Origin: Escherichia coli
Lineage (GTDB): Bacteria; Pseudomonadota; Gammaproteobacteria; Enterobacterales; Enterobacteriaceae
Length of the DNA: 64,000 nt
Assembly (NCBI RefSeq): GCF_050920415.1
Contig: NZ_CP169309.1
Strand: one strand, 5' to 3'
Shown: positions 26,306 through 36,729 of the stretch, piece by piece
Position numbering within the stretch: the stretch's first letter is position 1
Layout of the letters: each line of letters begins with the position of its first letter
The notes under the pieces: generated by a model
What the model was told of the DNA's origin: nothing
Databases searched by the model: none
What the model saw: only the letters and a program-made list of their open reading frames with translations
Program-made: the position numbers and the translations under genes

Positions 26306-27724
26306 TTATTTCCCCTTCCTCGCCGCCTCATACGCTGCTAACGTTCGTACTCTCGCTTCTTTGTGATCGACTATCGGTTGCGGATAATCCAGCGTCACAC
26401 CTGCTTTCTGCGCCCACTTCCACGGTTCATGCACCGCTTTCCCTGGTACATCACGCAACTCTGGTAACCACTGGCGGATAAACTCACCTTCGTGGTCAAA
26501 TTTCTCGCCCTGAGTTGTCGGGTTGAAAATACGGAAATACGGTGCAGCATCAGTTCCAGTAGAAGCCGCCCATTGCCAGCCACCGTTATTGGCTGCCAAA
26601 TCACCATCAATCAGTTGCGACATGAAATATCGCTCGCCTTCCCGCCAGTCGATCAGCAAATCTTTCACCAGAAAACTGGCAGTAATCATCCGCAGGCGAT
26701 TATGCATCCAGCCAGTGCTGTTAAGCTGACGCATGGCCGCATCAACAATCGGGTATCCCGTTTTGCCTTCCTGCCAGGCCTTTAAATGGGCGGGATTGCT
26801 TTGCCATTGCACGCGGTCGGTCCAGGCAATAAACGGTCGATGTTTACACAACGAGGGGTAATACGTCATCAGATGACGGTAGAACTCGCGCCAGATCAAC
26901 TCATTAAGCCAGACGCTACCGGCCCCACCGTCCAGCGCCTGCGGCTGTTCCGCCAACAGGCGATGCAGACACTGGCGAGGCGATAACCCGCCCGTTGCCA
27001 GGCTGGCGGACAAACGGCTGGTGCCTTCCACTGCAGGAAAATCTCGTTGTTGCTCGTACTCCCCTGCTCCGCTCTGGCAAAACTGGCGTAATTGCGCAAT
27101 CGCCGCTTTCTCTTCCACCGGGAAATGCGCAGTATCGAAAGGCTGACGAGGATAATTCAGCGTAATGGATGGCGCGGCTTCTATCATTACGCTACTACGT
27201 ACTTTTGGCGCAGCGACGCACTCCGGCACCCCTTCTCGCAGCCGTTTCAGCCAGGCGTTTTTAAATGGAGTAAAGACTTTGTACATCTCATGATTACCAG
27301 TCATCACCGCCCCCGGCGGCAGGATCACGCTGTCATCAAATCCTTCACACACCACGTTACGCAGCGTTCTCTCAACCTGCACATCCCGCGCCCGCTCATT
27401 CACCTCATACTGATAGTTATAAAACAGATGAGTAACACGATTTTCCGCGCACACCTGTTTAACTATTTCGACGCTGGCGGCAAAGTCATCCACTTCATGA
27501 AACAGCAAAGGAATGCCTTTTTCCGCCAGCGCGATTTGTAGCCCGTTCAGTTGTGCATTGATAAATTCAGCCTGACGCGGCGACACATTATGCGCCGCCC
27601 ACTGGCGTGGTGTAGCGATATACAACGCCAGCACGCGTGCAGACGAATTGCGGCAGGCGGCAGCAAGCGCGAGATTGTCGTGCAGACGTAAATCCTGGCG
27701 AAACCAGACCAGATGGGTAGTCAT
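26306..27724 (-). CDS. phr: Deoxyribodipyrimidine photolyase
   Basis: 472 aa ORF starting MTTHLVWFRQDLRLHDN. Confidence 0.96.
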   Translation of the reverse strand: MTTHLVWFRQDLRLHDNLALAAACRNSSARVLALYIATPRQWAAHNVSPRQAEFINAQLNGLQIALAEKGIPLLFHEVDDFAASVEIVKQVCAENRVTHLFYNYQYEVNERARDVQVERTLRNVVCEGFDDSVILPPGAVMTGNHEMYKVFTPFKNAWLKRLREGVPECVAAPKVRSSVMIEAAPSITLNYPRQPFDTAHFPVEEKAAIAQLRQFCQSGAGEYEQQRDFPAVEGTSRLSASLATGGLSPRQCLHRLLAEQPQALDGGAGSVWLNELIWREFYRHLMTYYPSLCKHRPFIAWTDRVQWQSNPAHLKAWQEGKTGYPIVDAAMRQLNSTGWMHNRLRMITASFLVKDLLIDWREGERYFMSQLIDGDLAANNGGWQWAASTGTDAAPYFRIFNPTTQGEKFDHEGEFIRQWLPELRDVPGKAVHEPWKWAQKAGVTLDYPQPIVDHKEARVRTLAAYEAARKGK

Positions 27725-28230
27725 AAAACTCCTGCATGGCGCAAGTTAATCACCCGCGGCCAAAGTTCGAAATAACGCTGCTCTGAAAGCCAGGCGTCAG
27801 GATAAAGCGCCATATAGTGTTTGATACGCATCAGCGGCGCAAGAAGCGGTTGCTCGCCACGGCGATAACTGTCGATAAGCGCCGCCAGTTGTAGACGTGC
27901 TGCGGAGTCAAGGTGTGGGCGAAAATAACCCTGAACGTGCATCAAAACGTTTGTATGATCGCGCCGATTGGCGGGATGAGAAAGCAAAACAATGACGCGT
28001 TGGCGGTACTGGTTGTAATAATCATCCAGATTTTGCCACTGGTGAATATCTGCCACAAACGGGCCAAGTTTGCGGTATTCCGGCTGGGAATGGGCCAGAA
28101 AGACGAGTTTATAGCGGCTGTGATAATCGAGAAGCGCCCCGCGCGTTAAGCCGTGTGATTTCAGTCGATGTAACTCATGAAGGGCGAAGATACGGATTAG
28201 AGTGCTGTCATCAAATCGTTGCTGATTCAT
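27721..28230 (-). CDS. ybgA: DUF1722 protein co-transcribed with phr
   Basis: 169 aa ORF, ATGA overlap with phr. Confidence 0.92.
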   Translation of the reverse strand: MNQQRFDDSTLIRIFALHELHRLKSHGLTRGALLDYHSRYKLVFLAHSQPEYRKLGPFVADIHQWQNLDDYYNQYRQRVIVLLSHPANRRDHTNVLMHVQGYFRPHLDSAARLQLAALIDSYRRGEQPLLAPLMRIKHYMALYPDAWLSEQRYFELWPRVINLRHAGVL

Positions 28231-28347
28231 TACTGCTCCTGAACGGTTTACAGGAGTAAGTGTAGACGTTGGGAAATGATATTTGTGAAGTTAATCCTGT
28301 TGTAGCAGGGCAAGATTACGAAAGCCCGCTCCCCGCAAGGACTGACG

Positions 28348-28893
28348 TCAGCTAGTTTCTGTCCATAGCTGCCCTTTCCATTCAAACGTGAAATCAATAA
28401 GTTCATCAGGGACATCGCAAACAATGTGAAGACGGATTTCTTCTCTGCCGTGACTCTTTTCACTAATTGCGTAACTGTCATGCTCTGGATTATTTAATTC
28501 TTTCAGCGGAAATTTTTCCTCGAAGGCTTTATTTAGCCGCCCCTGGTTTCCTTTTACAGCGAATAAATAATCACCTCCCTGTTTTTGTATCTTCTCTGCA
28601 ATATCTTTCTGGCAACCCATCGCATCAGTTGTGATGATTTTTCCTTTAATATCCAGCATGTTAAGAAGTTCCGGGGTAGCTGTAATCTCAATACCATTTT
28701 CAAAATCACCATATTGCTTCAAAAAATCGAGATGTGTTTCCCCAAAATCCTCTATATCTTCCCAACCTTCCGCACCCGAAATAACGGCGCAAATAGTCAA
28801 CAGTAGAATATCCGATAATTTATGCTCCACTTTCCAGGCTTGTCTGTAATCGGGGATAATAGAAATATGTTCCATCAATTTTTTAAGTTCCAT
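28348..28893 (-). pseudogene. ybfD: H-repeat-associated (ISAs1-family) transposase remnant, internally deleted and C-terminally truncated
   Basis: N-terminus [18 protein letters not shown]... typical of H-rpt proteins; only 181 aa where full length is about 378 aa; central region appears missing (recalled comparison). Confidence 0.7.
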
Positions 28894-29062
28894 TTTGTTC
28901 TCCTTAATTATGTAAGGAGTATTTGATCATGTATAAGCAATAAAAAACAGCTTCAGGTAATGAGGAATATCTCAATTTTTAAACATAAAATGCGAATTAT
29001 TTAGTACAAAAAAGCAGCGTTAAGTGAGTAGGCCACCGGAACCTCCCCGACAGCCTCTCGCA

Positions 29063-29096
29063 GAACCGTACGTGAAACTCTCGCTTCATACGGCTC
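29063..29096 (-). ncRNA. Group II intron ribozyme domain V
   Basis: Minus-strand GAGCCGTATGAAGCGAGAGTTTCACGTACGGTTC, 34 nt, with AGC triad and CGAGAG-type loop. Confidence 0.85.
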
Positions 29097-29099
29097 CCG

Positions 29100-30353
29100 T
29101 CAGGCAAACGCGCTTCCTGGTCCTGCTTTCCAGTGGGCAAACAACTCCGGCTTCTCTTTTGACAGCCTTTCCATTAGCTGACACGCCTTCGTCTTTCTAT
29201 ACCGCAGGGTTTTATATTTCTTTCTCGCCCACGCAATCAGCGTCAGATTAATATATCTGCATACTTTCTTCATCGCTGATTTGTGGTATCTCGCGTAATA
29301 ATTCAGCCACCCCGATATTATCGGATTCAGCCACTTCGCAATATCTTCGAGACTCATCTCCACCCTGCGTCTGATCCACAGTTTCCTGAGTTTTCCAATC
29401 ATGCCTTTCTGCGCACGGTTACTCGCCGCCGGGCTGAAACTCGTAAAGAGGTTTCCCCGCCGGTGGTTACGTGCTCTTCGCGCTCTGAACGTATACCCCA
29501 GAAAATCAAACTGCACTGTTTCATGGTTCGCCTGTCGTTCGCTGTCTTTGCAGTAAACTACTTTCGTTTTCTCCGGATGTAATTCCAGTCCACATTCCTG
29601 AAAACGTTTTGCCAGCTTATTCAGTAATTCCTCTGCCTGTTGTTTACTGCCACAATGAATTAATCCATCATCTGCATAACGGCACCAGGGAATTTCCGGA
29701 TAATGTAACGTCAGCCATTTATCAAACACATAGTGCAGAAATAAATTCGCCAGTACCGGGCTGATGACTCCACCCTGTGGCGTACCTTTATTTCTTTCCT
29801 TCAGTGTTCCATCCGGCATCTGCACCGGCGCTGTCAGCCACCGGCGAATAGACAGTCTTACCCATTTATCCGCACAATGTTTATCTACTGCCCTGAGTAA
29901 TAAATCGTGGGAGATATTATCGAATAACCCTTTAATATCAAACTCAAGACACCAGTCGTATTGCCAGCAACGTTTTCTGGTGACTGCTATTGCATCCAGC
30001 GCTGATTTTCCATGCCGGTATCCGTATGAATCATTCAGGAAATAACGCTCCACTAATGGTTCAAACGTTACCAGCACCGTCATCTGCGCTATTCGATCGC
30101 TTACTGTCGGTATTCCTAAAAGTCTTTTGCTGCCATCCTTCTTCGGAATTTCCACCGCACGCACTGGCGGCGGCATCCAGCTTCCCGACGATAACCTGTT
30201 CCAGATTTTGTACAGATTTCCTTTCAGATCCCGCTCAAAATCTTTCAGCGTCTGGTTATCCACTCCGGCAGCTCCGGCATTCGCCTTTATCCGCCGGTAC
30301 GCTTCCACCACATGCAATTTACTGACCTGAAACGGTTTTGTCTGTTCACACAC
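29100..30353 (-). CDS. Group II intron-encoded reverse transcriptase/maturase (no endonuclease domain)
   Basis: 417 aa; RT motifs LLGIPTVSDRIAQ and YADDGLI; C-terminal maturase X-like region; no HNH. Confidence 0.9.
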   Translation of the reverse strand: MCEQTKPFQVSKLHVVEAYRRIKANAGAAGVDNQTLKDFERDLKGNLYKIWNRLSSGSWMPPPVRAVEIPKKDGSKRLLGIPTVSDRIAQMTVLVTFEPLVERYFLNDSYGYRHGKSALDAIAVTRKRCWQYDWCLEFDIKGLFDNISHDLLLRAVDKHCADKWVRLSIRRWLTAPVQMPDGTLKERNKGTPQGGVISPVLANLFLHYVFDKWLTLHYPEIPWCRYADDGLIHCGSKQQAEELLNKLAKRFQECGLELHPEKTKVVYCKDSERQANHETVQFDFLGYTFRARRARNHRRGNLFTSFSPAASNRAQKGMIGKLRKLWIRRRVEMSLEDIAKWLNPIISGWLNYYARYHKSAMKKVCRYINLTLIAWARKKYKTLRYRKTKACQLMERLSKEKPELFAHWKAGPGSAFA

Positions 30354-30481
30354 AGCCTCCTCCTGCCTACAGTTGGGCTGTGATGCAGACTAGACTGGCC
30401 CCCTGAATCTCCAGACAACCAGTATCACTTAAATAAGTGATAGTCTTAATACTAGTTTTTAGACTAGTCATTGGAGAACAG

Positions 30482-30847
30482 ATGATTGATGTCTTAGGGC
30501 CGGAGAAACGCAGACGGCGTACCACACAGGAAAAGATCGCAATTGTTCAGCAGAGCTTTGAACCGGGGATGACGGTCTCCCTCGTTGCCCGGCAACATGG
30601 TGTAGCAGCCAGCCAGTTATTTCTCTGGCGTAAGCAATACCAGGAAGGAAGTCTTACTGCTGTCGCCGCCGGAGAACAGGTTGTTCCTGCCTCTGAACTT
30701 GCTGCCGCCATGAAGCAGATTAAAGAACTCCAGCGCCTGCTCGGCAAGAAAACGATGGAAAATGAACTCCTCAAAGAAGCCGTTGAATATGGACGGGCAA
30801 AAAAGTGGATAGCGCACGCGCCCTTATTGCCCGGGGATGGGGAGTAA
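30482..30847 (+). CDS. insC: IS2 OrfA (InsC)
   Basis: [30 protein letters not shown]... 121 aa. Confidence 0.93.
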
Positions 30848-31710
30848 GCTTAGTCAGCCGTTGTCTCCGGGTGTCGCGTGCGCAGTTGCACGTCATTCTC
30901 AGACGAACCGATGACTGGATGGATGGCCGCCGCAGTCGTCACACTGATGATACGGATGTGCTTCTCCGTATACACCATGTTATCGGAGAGCTGCCCACGT
31001 ATGGTTATCGTCGGGTATGGGCGCTGCTTCGCAGACAGGCAGAACTTGATGGTATGCCTGCAATCAATGCCAAACGTGTTTACCGGATCATGCGCCAGAA
31101 TGCGCTGTTGCTTGAGCGAAAACCTGCTGTACCGCCATCGAAACGGGCACATACAGGCAGAGTGGCCGTGAAAGAAAGCAATCAGCGATGGTGCTCTGAC
31201 GGGTTCGAGTTCTGCTGTGATAACGGAGAGAGACTGCGTGTCACGTTCGCGCTGGACTGCTGTGATCGTGAGGCACTGCACTGGGCGGTGACTACTGGCG
31301 GCTTCAACAGTGAAACAGTACAGGACGTCATGCTGGGAGCGGTGGAACGCCGCTTCGGCAACGATCTTCCGTCGTCTCCAGTGGAGTGGCTGACGGATAA
31401 TGGTTCATGCTACCGGGCTAATGAAACACGCCAGTTCGCCCGGATGTTGGGACTTGAACCGAAGAACACGGCGGTGCGGAGTCCGGAGAGTAACGGAATA
31501 GCAGAGAGCTTCGTGAAAACGATAAAGCGTGACTACATCAGTATCATGCCCAAACCAGACGGGTTAACGGCAGCAAAGAACCTTGCAGAGGCGTTCGAGC
31601 ATTATAACGAATGGCATCCGCATAGTGCGCTGGGTTATCGCTCGCCACGGGAATATCTGCGGCAGCGGGCTTGTAATGGGTTAAGTGATAACAGATGTCT
31701 GGAAATATAG
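30805..31710 (+). CDS. insD: IS2 OrfB transposase (InsD, DDE)
   Basis: 301 aa ORF overlapping insC in the -1 frame. Confidence 0.93.
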
Positions 31711-32342
31711 GGGCAAATCCACAGACTGCCCGACGCTGTCCCTTCGCTCCACGTTCATTACAAACGCTTCCTCACTACTACGAACAGCTCTGCCCCGGTT
31801 TCGCACATCGATACTCTCATACTCATAATTTCGGTTATTTGTATTTCTCTCTTGAAATTGCGACGACCGGTTCCCGTAGTTCCTGCAAAGAGCCTGATAC
31901 AGCGTCATGCCTGCTATACACCGGACACCATTCACGCAGCATTCGGAATTCACCCGTAAATTAATCCCGGCGGTATCACGAAACCTCCGGTTTTGATGTC
32001 ACTTAGGACTAACGACGTTTCAACACAGGTTCGGGTTTACTCATCTCACTGTATCTCACATAGGATCAGATCTCGTCTGATCGTTCCCCCTGCGCTCACT
32101 ACCATGGCTCTTTACCACAGCAGCCGGGGTTGTTTGGGACCGACTTCCGACAGCAGATCCCGGTGGGCCTGCCACCATCTCTTCACAAGCTTATGCTTAT
32201 TACATGCAAAACGTCCCGTTTTGCATCTTTGTGCCTACGGCACACGATGATCTTTCCCTGTACCACCTCCTCAGGAAGTGGTTTAAGGTTAATAACAAAA
32301 ATACCAATCATTTTAATAAAATATGACGAGTATTTATTTTCA

Positions 32343-32615
32343 TTATATTTTAAAGCATCCTAGCCCCTGCGATGCTCGCCATCGTTTTAACTCATCAACA
32401 ATCCCTTGGGGACTATCTTCTCTATCTTCAGATGGATAGAATATCAAATCACTACCATCTGGGTGCTGAGTGATTCTAATAAAATGACTTACAAGATCAT
32501 CAATAAACTTCGACAATTTATCGCCATGCAATTCCTCAGGTGGTTCAAAAAAATTATTTAGAAGTTCGATAAATTCATCTTCCGTATAATCTTCTAGATT
32601 ATTTTTAAACTCCAT
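32343..32615 (-). CDS. Colicin/pyocin DNase immunity protein (Im9-like)
   Basis: 90 aa; aligns with recalled Im9: DYTE.EF, HP(D/S)GSDLI(F/Y)YP, (D/E)DSP.GIV, (K/Q)WRA; starts 14 nt after the vgrG stop. Confidence 0.88.
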   Translation of the reverse strand: MEFKNNLEDYTEDEFIELLNNFFEPPEELHGDKLSKFIDDLVSHFIRITQHPDGSDLIFYPSEDREDSPQGIVDELKRWRASQGLGCFKI

Positions 32616-32629
32616 TACTACCTCCTTTT

Positions 32630-35600
32630 TTATTTATGCAATCGTATGTGGTTTTTAGGTGTGTTTACTCTAAGATTATCAATATCATAGACTTCTCCCC
32701 CATATTGGATTTCGTCAATATGATGAATTTCAAATGTACCTCGCCCCCCAACTCTTTGTCTTGATATAGTATAAGGTGCGCGTCCACGCTTTATCAACGT
32801 TTGGTTAGCTTTATTAAATTGGCTCAATAGTTCTGGACATTCACCTACAGCAGTCCAGAAAGCTGCCCTGAATTCATCAAAATTGTTAAATGACTTACTC
32901 CGAAGTTTATTTGCGACCTGTTGTGGAATTGGCACTCCTAAGCTTTTCCCCGCCTGCGACAGCCATCTTCCTGTACCTGCTAACACCTCCCCCTTACCTG
33001 TTACTGTTCCCGCTTCATCCCTTGCAGTTTTCAGATACACATATATTGGTGTTAATTCCGCACCGTCAGGAAAGACAAGTATCCAGTCATTAAAATTTCG
33101 CTCCTCCGGCATTGGAGAAGGCGGCGTGGTGATATCTGTTTTTTCATCGGGTATCGGATTAACATAAATATCAGGTAGATCAACTGGTTCGACAGGAGTT
33201 CCGGTGTGTATGGGCTGCTCTGAACCTTCTGGCTTTGCAGGCGTCCAAAATATTTTTGGTCCCGAATCAGACACAGGTGAAAATTCATAACGGGAAAATT
33301 CCTTATTCCACTCCATCAATGCTACCCGAACACCTTCAAGTTCCGAACCTGCGGGTGTGTGGTATCCGTATGTTCTCAATTCACCAGCAGTATTCCGCTG
33401 AAAGAGAAAGCGCGCCCGCGTAGCTGCCGTCTCTCCAGATTGCGCTTTACGACGTAGCTCATTTTCGAGCCACTGTTCATCCCGTCCAGGAACTTTATCA
33501 CTACCTTCACCGGCAGGTATTGGATATAGTGCTGATACTAGAACACCAAGGGCTGGCACCGTTTTTGATACACTTAAAAAACCTTCTCCACCCCATGCCC
33601 CTAATGTTCCCCATACGCGAGTTAAAACTCCCGCAGACTGTTCCGCCGCTAGTGGAACCGCAACACCCGCTGACGCAACTGTCATTTCCCCCGTCAGTGA
33701 GTTCGCTCCTGAAGTTTTTTTTGCTGACTGCGCAAGTTGCTCCACTTCATCGTCATGATAGTGTGTACCATAGCCGCAACAGTCATCCTCCACTGGCTGG
33801 GCAAATAGAGCCATATCACCAAAATGTTTCGATGGCTCCATGGTCGTACCAGCATCAGTGCAGCCTTTCTCCTTCAGACAAGATTTTGCGTATACAGGAA
33901 TTACCAGTTCATCTGAATCGTCCTTGTCTTCTTCTCCACCTTCTGATTCATCCTCATCACTAGGCTCTCCGTCATTCCCGCCGCCAGCATTCCCTCTGTC
34001 ATACTGCTCGTCAGCCAGAGCGTCCATAACTGCCGGTTGTAGTGTATTTATCGGCGTCCCCGGACTGCCCCCGCCATTCAGATTTATTTTCGGTCCGACA
34101 ATATCCACACCACCAGAATGAACGACCACAAACGAGCCCCCCACCTTCAGGCTTATCCGGCTGCTGCTCTCCAGCACGATATCCCCGTCCACCTTGATCC
34201 CCAGCGCGCCACTCACCTTCTCCGCCAGGTCGCCCTTCACCTCCAGACTGTGCGTTCCCTCCACCAGACTGATATGGTTCCCCGTCGTCTTATGCTCCTG
34301 CTTCCCTTCCACCGTCACTTTACGGTCGTTTCTGACATACAGGCCGTCATCGTGACTCACGCTCACCGTCCGGTCATTCGTCACCTTCAGCGTCTGGTCA
34401 TTACGTACCGTTATGCGCCGGTCGTTCGCCACCGTGATACTCTGGTCGTGACCCCCTTCTTTTCTGGTGCCGACCTCAACCGTCTGCCCCTTCACCACCC
34501 TTATCTTCTGGTCGTTACCGATGGTCTCCGTATGGTCATGCTTCACGTCCGTCCGCCGGTCGTTAAGCACCTCCGTGTCCATGTTCTTCTGCGCGTGGAT
34601 ATACACCTGCTCACTGTCCGTCGCATCCTCGAAACGCAGTTCATTAAAGCCGCTTCCTTTATAGGTCTTCGAGCGGATGGTCATCTGCGTCCGCGTGCCC
34701 GGTAAATCCCCCGGTGAACGGTTGTCCTCATGGTATGTCCGCCCCGTCACAATGGGCTGGTCCGGGTCGCCGTTCAGAAAGTCCACTATCACTTCCTGAC
34801 CCACACGCGGTATCGCCAGATTGCCGAACCCCGGTCCCGCCCATGCCTGCGACACCCGTATCCAGCATGAACTCTCCTCCGTCATCCCGTGATAACGGTC
34901 CCAGTGAAACTTCACCCGTACCCGGCCATGTTCGTCGCAGAATATCTCCTCGCCCTTCGGCCCGGTCACAATGGCACTCTGCGGGCCGTCCACCTTCGGC
35001 TTCGGCAGCGGCGCGTGACGCCACGTCCTGTCTGCCGGTATCACCTCAAACTGATTGCTCAGTGTCGTCCCTTCACCGTGACTCCCGTGCAGCGCCTGCG
35101 GCTGTTCTCCCCGCAGTGTGCTTCCCACAACCTGCCATTCCCGGTTCAGCGTCCCTGACGGATGGCCCGTCAGCCGGAACCGCGTTCCCGGCCACAGTCG
35201 CGCCGTGTTACACACCCCGCTCGCCGTCTCCGCCCCGTTCCGCCACCCTTCCGTCTGGTAACGCGCAAAATCCTGGCCATGCTGCTCATCCTTGAAACGC
35301 CCCGGATAATCAAATATCTCGTACTGCGTTCCCTGCCCGTTCAGGCTCTCCCCGTCATGGCTGTAGTACCCCGGCCACCCCGGCGTTTTGAACGTATAAT
35401 CCTGCGTCTCCACCGACGCCACGCTTATCTGCGCACGGTAACGGAAGTCGCTGATGTACTCTGTCGTGCCTCCGGTCGTGGTATTCGGGTTAAACGCCAG
35501 CGCCCCCATTCCCGTCAGCCCCGCCACGTCATCACACACCGCCAGCTTCTGTTCCGGCCCGTCCTGACTGCAGCGTTCATAAAAGAAGATACCTTCCTCC

Positions 35601-36085
35601 GCCCACAGCCGGGTCAGGAATGTCAGGTCGCTCTCCCCGTACTGCACGCAGAACTCCCGCGCCGGGTGCGCCTCATAGAACAGCGGCATCCACGCCGTCA
35701 CCCCGTTCTCTCTCAGAAGCTGTGCTGATATCGTCCCTATGTCCTGCTGCTGGAAGATACGGAAGTTCTGCCGTAACCCTGCCCGCCACAGCGGCGGGCT
35801 GATGCTCAGGGAATAACGCATCTGCCAGTCGTTGTTCTCACCGAGCTGCACCTCCGTCACGATACCGCTGACGTAACGCTGCGGGATATCACCCTGCCAG
35901 ACCGTCAGCACCGCGCTCTTCTCCAGAAAATCCTCCGCCGTCAGGTCAGACAGCCCGCTGGCGATATCCACATCCAGGATGAACGGCGTGCAGTGGTGCT
36001 GGTACAGACGGAAGCTCACCACCGCCGTCGCCATCTCCACGATACCGGCCACCGACAGCGTGAAACGTAATCCTTCTGAGGACAT
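32630..36085 (-). CDS. vgrG: Specialized VgrG spike protein fused to a C-terminal S-type-pyocin-like region and colicin E9-type HNH DNase
   Basis: N-terminal VgrG core (MSSEGLRFTL..., gp5-like VTVANDRRITVRNDQTLKVTNDRTVSVSHDD repeats); acidic linker; C-terminus GGRGTFEIHHIDEIQYGGEVYDIDNLRVNTPKNHIRLHK. Start taken at internal MSSEGLRF; the track ORF extends to 36118. Confidence 0.9.
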   Translation of the reverse strand: MSSEGLRFTLSVAGIVEMATAVVSFRLYQHHCTPFILDVDIASGLSDLTAEDFLEKSAVLTVWQGDIPQRYVSGIVTEVQLGENNDWQMRYSLSISPPLWRAGLRQNFRIFQQQDIGTISAQLLRENGVTAWMPLFYEAHPAREFCVQYGESDLTFLTRLWAEEGIFFYERCSQDGPEQKLAVCDDVAGLTGMGALAFNPNTTTGGTTEYISDFRYRAQISVASVETQDYTFKTPGWPGYYSHDGESLNGQGTQYEIFDYPGRFKDEQHGQDFARYQTEGWRNGAETASGVCNTARLWPGTRFRLTGHPSGTLNREWQVVGSTLRGEQPQALHGSHGEGTTLSNQFEVIPADRTWRHAPLPKPKVDGPQSAIVTGPKGEEIFCDEHGRVRVKFHWDRYHGMTEESSCWIRVSQAWAGPGFGNLAIPRVGQEVIVDFLNGDPDQPIVTGRTYHEDNRSPGDLPGTRTQMTIRSKTYKGSGFNELRFEDATDSEQVYIHAQKNMDTEVLNDRRTDVKHDHTETIGNDQKIRVVKGQTVEVGTRKEGGHDQSITVANDRRITVRNDQTLKVTNDRTVSVSHDDGLYVRNDRKVTVEGKQEHKTTGNHISLVEGTHSLEVKGDLAEKVSGALGIKVDGDIVLESSSRISLKVGGSFVVVHSGGVDIVGPKINLNGGGSPGTPINTLQPAVMDALADEQYDRGNAGGGNDGEPSDEDESEGGEEDKDDSDELVIPVYAKSCLKEKGCTDAGTTMEPSKHFGDMALFAQPVEDDCCGYGTHYHDDEVEQLAQSAKKTSGANSLTGEMTVASAGVAVPLAAEQSAGVLTRVWGTLGAWGGEGFLSVSKTVPALGVLVSALYPIPAGEGSDKVPGRDEQWLENELRRKAQSGETAATRARFLFQRNTAGELRTYGYHTPAGSELEGVRVALMEWNKEFSRYEFSPVSDSGPKIFWTPAKPEGSEQPIHTGTPVEPVDLPDIYVNPIPDEKTDITTPPSPMPEERNFNDWILVFPDGAELTPIYVYLKTARDEAGTVTGKGEVLAGTGRWLSQAGKSLGVPIPQQVANKLRSKSFNNFDEFRAAFWTAVGECPELLSQFNKANQTLIKRGRAPYTISRQRVGGRGTFEIHHIDEIQYGGEVYDIDNLRVNTPKNHIRLHK

Positions 36086-36258
36086 ATAAACCCCATAGCT
36101 ACCGCACTCATGGTGCAAACCATACGGGCTTATAAGAAAGGCTTAAGTGAGATATCTGCCAGATAGCAACTATTAGGAAAATATTTATATATATTTCATG
36201 AATATATATTTCGGTTGGTATAACGGTGTCTAAATATTCCTCTGAACATCTTCCTGAT

Positions 36259-36296
36259 ACAAAAAAACCGCCAGCGTTTCCGCTGGCGGTTTTCTT
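36259..36296. terminator. Rho-independent terminator downstream of ybfA
   Basis: aaaaaaccgccagcg-tttcc-gctggcggttttcttt hairpin with flanking A/T runs. Confidence 0.8.
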
Positions 36297-36315
36297 TGAA
36301 CGTAATATTTAGCAA

Positions 36316-36522
36316 TCAGTAAAAATCACCGGTTGCCTTTTCGGCCTGATCCATCCACACCGGTTTATCGCTGGTTTTCGACCAGACGCGGTGCAGGTAG
36401 CTGTAAAAGCGGGCGCGGTCTTTCCAGAAAAGCATGAAAGGCAGCGCCAAAACGCCCGCTGCAACCGCATAAGTACGGCGTAAAAAGATAAGCCATGCAG
36501 GATATTCTCTGTAGAGTTCCAT
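36316..36522 (-). CDS. ybfA: Small DUF2517 membrane protein
   Basis: 68 aa [36 protein letters not shown]. Confidence 0.88.
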
Positions 36523-36729
36523 ACTTTTCTCCCCCTTTTGTATCTACCCGGTGAATGGCACCGGAAAAATGAATTTGTTTATCTGATGAAAATAGTACCG
36601 CCTTTTGTGTAATTTTACTACTCATCCGACCACTTATTTTTGCTTATTGATGGTTTATTTACATTCACCCCGTAATTAAGTTACATAAAAGTTAAATTAA
36701 TACTAAACATTAGTTAAATCATGGCTTTT

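Follow-up and report, generated by a model that had tools for sequence, protein, structure and literature searches.

What is the short open reading frame (ORF) flanked by ybgA and a group II intron in this Escherichia coli chromosome, and is it the trace of an Rhs element? The original prediction described it as a degenerate H-repeat (ISAs1-family) transposase marking an Rhs-element remnant. We analyzed it within a stretch of 64,000 nucleotides of contig NZ_CP169309.1, referred to here as the window. The coordinates of all features are collected in Table 1.

Results

The ORF next to ybgA is a ybfD pseudogene

The ORF is open from ATG to TGA and encodes 181 aa. It scores 152.7 bits against the NCBIfam model for ISAs1 transposases (NF033564, cut-off 70 bits), which places it in this family; the match consists of two stretches, the best of them covering profile positions 123-229 of 314. 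The Pfam domain DDE_Tnp_1_assoc was detected at aa 8-68 (E=4.4e-21) and is incomplete, since only profile positions 2-62 of 88 are covered; intact YdcC and K-12 YbfD both match positions 2-88. The catalytic domain DDE_Tnp_1 is incomplete as well: the ORF covers profile positions 58-132 of 200, K-12 YbfD 3-139 and intact YdcC 3-200, showing that positions 3-57 and 133-200 are gone from the ORF. Aligned residues are 96-97% identical to K-12 YbfD and to the intact 378-aa ISEc1 protein YdcC. Because of these family matches the ORF is not a chance ORF. An identical ORF in the near-identical complete genome of strain MFDS1022581, located between ybgA and the group II intron gene ltrA, is labelled by PGAP as an "ISAs1 family transposase" pseudogene. 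The ORF is thus E. coli ybfD, a dead copy of the ISEc1 "H-repeat", and a feature that is already known and already annotated as a pseudogene. The family profiles and the alignments to K-12 ybfD and intact ISEc1 confirmed the proposed degenerate H-repeat transposase, and the alignments revealed no complete short-form protein.

Table 1. Features of the ybgA-linked H-repeat locus in the window, and state of the ybgA-linked copy in other strains.
Feature	Position	Strand	Basis or state
ybfD ortholog, an ISEc1 (ISAs1-family) transposase pseudogene with two deletions	28348..28893	-	ORF, Pfam, NCBIfam, alignments
ISEc1/H-repeat remnant, main body, 717 bp	28306..29022	-	Intron 3' splice site to outer end of right inverted repeat
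Right terminal inverted repeat; inward reading along the + strand gives CAGGGCAAGATTACG	28306..28320	+	Alignment, motif search
Left terminal inverted repeat, outer 15 nt, CAGGGAAAGATCATC, separated by the intron from the rest of the element	32246..32260	-	Alignment, motif search
Junction of 246-bp in-frame deletion (ISEc1 nt 348-593, aa 69-150), 1-nt microhomology	28689..28691	-	Alignments
Junction of 313-bp frameshifting deletion (ISEc1 nt 912-1224), common to K-12 ybfD	28372..28373	-	Alignments
ybgA (DUF1722), conserved chromosomal neighbour, 75 bp from right end of element	27721..28230	-	ORF, Pfam
Colicin/pyocin-type immunity gene, ends 82 bp upstream of H-repeat left end	32343..32615	-	ORF, Pfam
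VgrG fused to S-type pyocin and colicin/pyocin DNase domains, 1162 aa, in K-12 rhsC slot	32630..36118	-	ORF, domains, DNA comparison
Group II intron, E.c.I9-like, 1887 bp without IS2 and one copy of the target-site duplication	29023..32245	-	Rfam, Pfam, alignment
ltrA remnant ORF (RT/maturase; RVT_1, GIIM domains)	29100..30353	-	Pfam
IS2, 1331 bp, 31 nt after ltrA start codon, target-site duplication CAGAC at 30386..30390 and 31722..31726	30391..31721	+	ORFs, DNA comparison
ybgA-linked copy, strain 136	L010 6180..7316 (transposase)		Intact, 1291 bp / 378 aa
ybgA-linked copy, K-12 and O80 EC-107			313-bp deletion and W232stop
ybgA-linked copy, 93_0495			313-bp deletion and Q18stop
ybgA-linked copy, 2009C-3133			313-bp deletion and two 1-nt insertions
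ybgA-linked copy, N96			313-bp deletion and TTDAMG changed to TTGAMG (D-to-G change)
ybgA-linked copy, this window and MFDS1022581			313-bp deletion and 246-bp deletion

Two internal deletions account for the length of the element

The intact ISEc1 at ydcC (1291 bp, inverted repeats CAGGG[A/C]AAGAT[C/T]ACG, 378-aa transposase) and K-12 ybfD served as references for the anatomy of the element. Alignments to both showed that the central block thought to be missing is indeed gone, through a deletion of 246 bp that removes 82 codons and keeps the reading frame. The second deletion, of 313 bp, follows codon 232-233; approximately aa 233-360 are gone, the frame is shifted, and a tail of QLWTETS followed by the stop codon replaces the last 146 residues. 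About 60 bp at the far end of the element survive, the right inverted repeat among them, showing that the C-terminal loss results from an internal deletion that leaves this end in place. The C-terminal catalytic part is therefore missing as predicted, but not through truncation.

Subtraction of both deletions from the full length (1291-246-313) leaves 732 bp, which is exactly the sum of the main body (717 bp) and the separated tip (15 bp) found in the window. A search for the motif CAGGG[A/C]AAGAT[C/T]A returned only two exact matches in the 64-kb window, at 28306..28318 (+) and 32248..32260 (-), so that terminal inverted repeats are present at both ends of the element. A target-site duplication was not found at the H-repeat ends, where the flanks GGAGGTGGTA and CTACAACAGG are unrelated, but at the intact ydcC copy a duplication is missing too. 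In the annotation, the ORF should carry a ybfD-type ISAs1 pseudogene label, and the 15-bp tip should be assigned to the same element.

A group II intron splits the left inverted repeat

Rfam detected group II intron domains on the minus strand (DV/DVI at 29023..29098, D1-D4 at 32059..32176) with scores of 93.1 bits for RF01999 and 62.8 bits for RF00029, and these ribozyme domains are accompanied by an RT/maturase ORF. The intron starts 130 bp upstream of the ATG of the 181-aa ORF. Its insertion point in the left inverted repeat of the H-repeat follows nt 15, and the tip of this repeat now lies 3.2 kb away. Its GTGTG start is directly preceded by CAGGGAAAGATCATC (32260..32246), and joining of the exons across the intron restores a left end that is colinear with intact ISEc1. 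The ORF does lie between ybgA and the intron, as had been stated, but the intron is located inside the element and does not merely adjoin it.

The introns E.c.I2 and E.c.I9 specifically target Rhs-associated insertion sequences (ISEc1-5), and the limits of E.c.I9 used here are those delimited in the same study (Leclercq and Cordaux, 2012; PMC3522654); direct comparison was made with E.c.I9. An intron 3' end at 29024, as suggested by the "AY" rule, was rejected in favor of 29023 on the basis of the published limits and the exact 732-bp arithmetic. Of 5,426 complete genomes, 86 contain the junction between intron and H-repeat, and its chromosomal positions are many, as expected of retrohoming. 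H-repeats and an intron in an H-repeat are reportedly the subjects of papers by Zhao et al. from 1993 and by Knoop and Brennicke from 1994.

Since IS2 lies inside ltrA, the RT/maturase gene is broken. This IS2 is absent from the loci of MFDS1022581, N96 and R32_14_1F and from four other contexts of this allele.

Stubs of the 5' part of E.c.I9 were seen in O157 Sakai (193 nt; L006 2313..2522) and in N96 (~149 nt; L004 11966..12129). Each is preceded by an H-repeat left-end tip and runs straight into the tip of a left inverted repeat that belongs to another H-repeat, which suggests insertion of an H-repeat into the intron or recombination between left ends.

Orthologous copies carry unrelated lesions

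K-12 and most other E. coli have a matching flank from the right inverted repeat to ybgA, and ybgA-linked copies number ~4,400 in complete genomes. In an evenly spaced genome sample, matches that run through the ybgA flank are annotated as ybfD and ybgA; matches to ISEc1 copies elsewhere start exactly at the end of the inverted repeat, at query position 107, which corresponds to position 28306 of the window. The state of the ybgA-linked copy differs between strains (Table 1), and these independent, unrelated lesions argue for the decay of a pseudogene and against a conserved short form. Not all E. coli have the 313-bp deletion, as the intact 378-aa copy in strain 136 shows.

The 246-bp deletion is rare: among the matches listed, its junction was found in one piece only in MFDS1022581, 1 of the 5,426 complete genomes of E. 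coli. A large protein collection has the exact 181-aa protein on 11 contigs, including those of E. coli M863 and 1.2741, and the context of all 11 is VgrG-DNase, immunity gene, intron, ORF and ybgA. N96 and R32_14_1F contain the intron and lack this deletion.

The H-repeat part is 97-98% identical to K-12, compared with 93.4% for the adjacent ybgA-phrB DNA; core DNA at the flanks of the island is 93.4% and 95.1% identical (window regions considered, 27000..28690 with part of the H-repeat and 36117..36685). Constraint could explain this excess in similarity, while gene conversion from other ISEc1 copies is the simpler explanation. The source strain probably belongs to a divergent Escherichia lineage, in which the IS relic may have been homogenised by gene conversion.

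The H-repeat borders a toxin island that contains a VgrG cassette

The gene order in the window is sucABCD ... nei-pxpABC-ybgI-dtpD-phrB-ybgA, followed by the island and by ybfA-kdp; the order in K-12 is reversed. Neither an Rhs sequence nor an rhs core gene was found between 28306 and 36117, as judged by ORFs, domains and DNA comparison with K-12 rhsC. This interval is completely filled by the VgrG-DNase gene, the immunity gene, the intron, IS2 and the H-repeat, and the island thus has no gene for a YD-repeat protein. From 36117 onwards, ~45 bp upstream of where rhsC would start, the DNA is again homologous to K-12, showing that the cassette occupies exactly the rhsC slot. In K-12 and other sampled strains the ybfA-ybgA island consists of rhsC, orphan toxin tips and immunity genes, with this H-repeat last. 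Strain R32_14_1F carries a full rhs gene with orphan toxin tips directly upstream of the intron-bearing H-repeat (98.7-99.4% identical).

The H-repeat of the window shares the ybgA junction and the internal 313-bp deletion with that of RhsC and is orthologous to it, and we infer that an rhs core was probably once present in this lineage. The description as an "Rhs-element remnant" holds for this orthology and for the related strains with rhs, but not for the island of the window itself. Alternatively, the H-repeat might not be an Rhs remnant here but the fixed right-hand border of an island that exchanges toxin cassettes, in which VgrG-DNase may always have been the cargo. The fully accounted space without Rhs sequence, the precise fit of the cassette into the rhsC slot and the VgrG-DNase context of all 11 contigs with this allele are in line with such a border. 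The full rhs gene next to the same intron-bearing H-repeat in R32_14_1F and the presence of rhsC in the island of every other sampled strain speak against it, and we regard this alternative as possible but rather doubtful. The locus shows the ybgA-adjoining H-repeat as a stable border of the toxin island, the cargo of which switches between Rhs and VgrG-DNase cassettes.

In the RefSeq annotation of MFDS1022581 the VgrG-DNase fusion, which is uninterrupted in the window, is split into a "tssI pseudogene" and an "S-type pyocin protein". A frameshift between both sequences was ruled out, since the DNA is 100% identical; the split therefore looks like an annotation choice. N96 contains an additional ~3.1 kb (L004 11972..15104) between two directly repeated H-repeat left ends: a second, uninterrupted N-terminal H-repeat fragment follows right after the immunity gene, then a gene of a glycoside hydrolase family and a hypothetical gene, and the intron-bearing copy comes last. 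With only one left end, the window has the layout of N96 minus these ~3.1 kb, indicating that a deletion or insertion at the 15-bp tip turned one layout into the other.

The 181-aa product has probably lost its catalytic residues

Alignment to the intact protein showed that the AIDGK and HWHVENKLHW blocks are absent from the 181-aa protein. By analogy with IS4-like DDE transposases, the first block would contain the first Asp and the second the Glu of the DDE triad, so both residues are probably lost. No PDB chain matched the sequence of intact YdcC even at E values up to 10, and the placement of the catalytic residues is therefore putative. What the protein retains is the DDE_Tnp_1_assoc region at its N terminus and a central portion of the catalytic domain. 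With the first Asp and the Glu presumably gone, it could not transpose anything, and the remnant DNA would persist as neutral material. Most probably, the ORF is left with no function.

A good Shine-Dalgarno sequence (TAAGGAGAACAAAATG) and weak promoter-like hexamers are retained upstream of the ORF. With these, the open frame and the in-frame deletion, the 181-aa product may still be expressed. Truncated transposases of other insertion sequences repress or titrate the transposase, and the ORF could likewise have been kept as a functional short protein, for example as a repressor or titrator of the ISEc1 transposase that only binds DNA. This would agree with the intact first 68 aa, the retained ribosome-binding site and the better conservation of the H-repeat part compared with the core DNA flanking the island. 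However, orthologs were inactivated by unrelated lesions, one of them a stop at codon 18, and few genomes of a single lineage have the allele. The deletion also cuts the DDE_Tnp_1_assoc domain, at profile position 62 of 88, and the frame of the C-terminal tail is shifted. We therefore consider a retained, functional short protein very unlikely; a DNA-binding inhibitor is the only non-trivial alternative to an ORF that has lost its function. Slightly less likely still are a product that acts in trans as an inhibitor or regulator of intact ISEc1 copies through its largely retained, presumably DNA-binding N-terminal region, and a 3.95-kb segment bounded by the inverted repeats (28306..32260, with intron and IS2 inside) that an intact ISEc1 transposase could still mobilise in trans.

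An assembly or sequencing artefact as the source of the 246-bp gap can practically be dismissed: ISEc1-like repeats occur ~5 times per genome and repeats are prone to mis-assembly, but the identical junction is present in the independent complete genome MFDS1022581, the same ORF occurs on the 11 contigs from several NCBI assemblies, M863 and 1.2741 among them, and the unique flanks are continuous on both sides.

Discussion

A layered history of insertions and deletions

Taken together, the ORF is very probably a non-functional relic of one ISEc1 element (H-repeat, ISAs1 family), the ybfD ortholog at the ybgA-proximal edge of the ybfA-ybgA toxin island, which decayed step by step. First, a full 1291-bp ISEc1 would have been located beside ybgA, where strain 136 still has an intact copy. 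The 313-bp internal deletion, common to K-12, N96 and the window, would then have removed the C-terminal DDE part and shifted the frame. Next, E.c.I9 would have retrohomed into the left inverted repeat, at its usual target behind nt 15, a step common to N96, R32_14_1F and this lineage. The 246-bp in-frame deletion would have followed in this lineage only, and finally IS2 would have landed in the intron and broken ltrA, in this window only. We infer that the intron preceded the 246-bp deletion because N96 and R32_14_1F have the one without the other. The successive insertions and deletions that had been proposed for this locus are borne out by the alignments to K-12 ybfD and intact ISEc1. The locus is a case of layered mobile-element decay: an insertion sequence with two deletions, a group II intron in its end, and a second insertion sequence in the intron.

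Comparison with ISEc1, K-12 ybfD and E.c.I9

Like the ISEc1 at ydcC, the copy in the window has both terminal inverted repeats as well as the 5' untranslated region and start codon, and the parts kept are 96% identical at the amino acid level. It differs in length (732 versus 1291 bp; 181 versus 378 aa) and in its left inverted repeat, which is split by the intron.

K-12 ybfD is the third H-repeat of the RhsC element and is annotated as "ISAs1 family transposase", pseudogene. Both copies adjoin ybgA and have the same right inverted repeat and flank, the same 313-bp deletion and 97% identity in aligned residues. In contrast to the copy in the window, K-12 ybfD has neither the 246-bp deletion nor the intron, and it follows two further tandem H-repeats (ybfL, ybfQ) and rhsC, where the window has the VgrG-DNase cassette. 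K-12 ybfD also carries a TGG-to-TAG stop, given as W232stop and also as codon 254 (253-aa product), which the copy in the window does not have.

The intron aligns with E.c.I9 of ATCC 8739 (NC_010468, 2411599-2413485) over 1887 of 1887 nt without gaps and with 96.3% identity. It differs by 69 substitutions and by its ltrA, which is broken by IS2 31 nt into the gene. The first and last 30 nt are identical, and both introns occupy the position behind nt 15 in the left inverted repeat of an H-repeat, so that the intron in the window shares colinear identity and homing site with the E.c.I9 reference copy.
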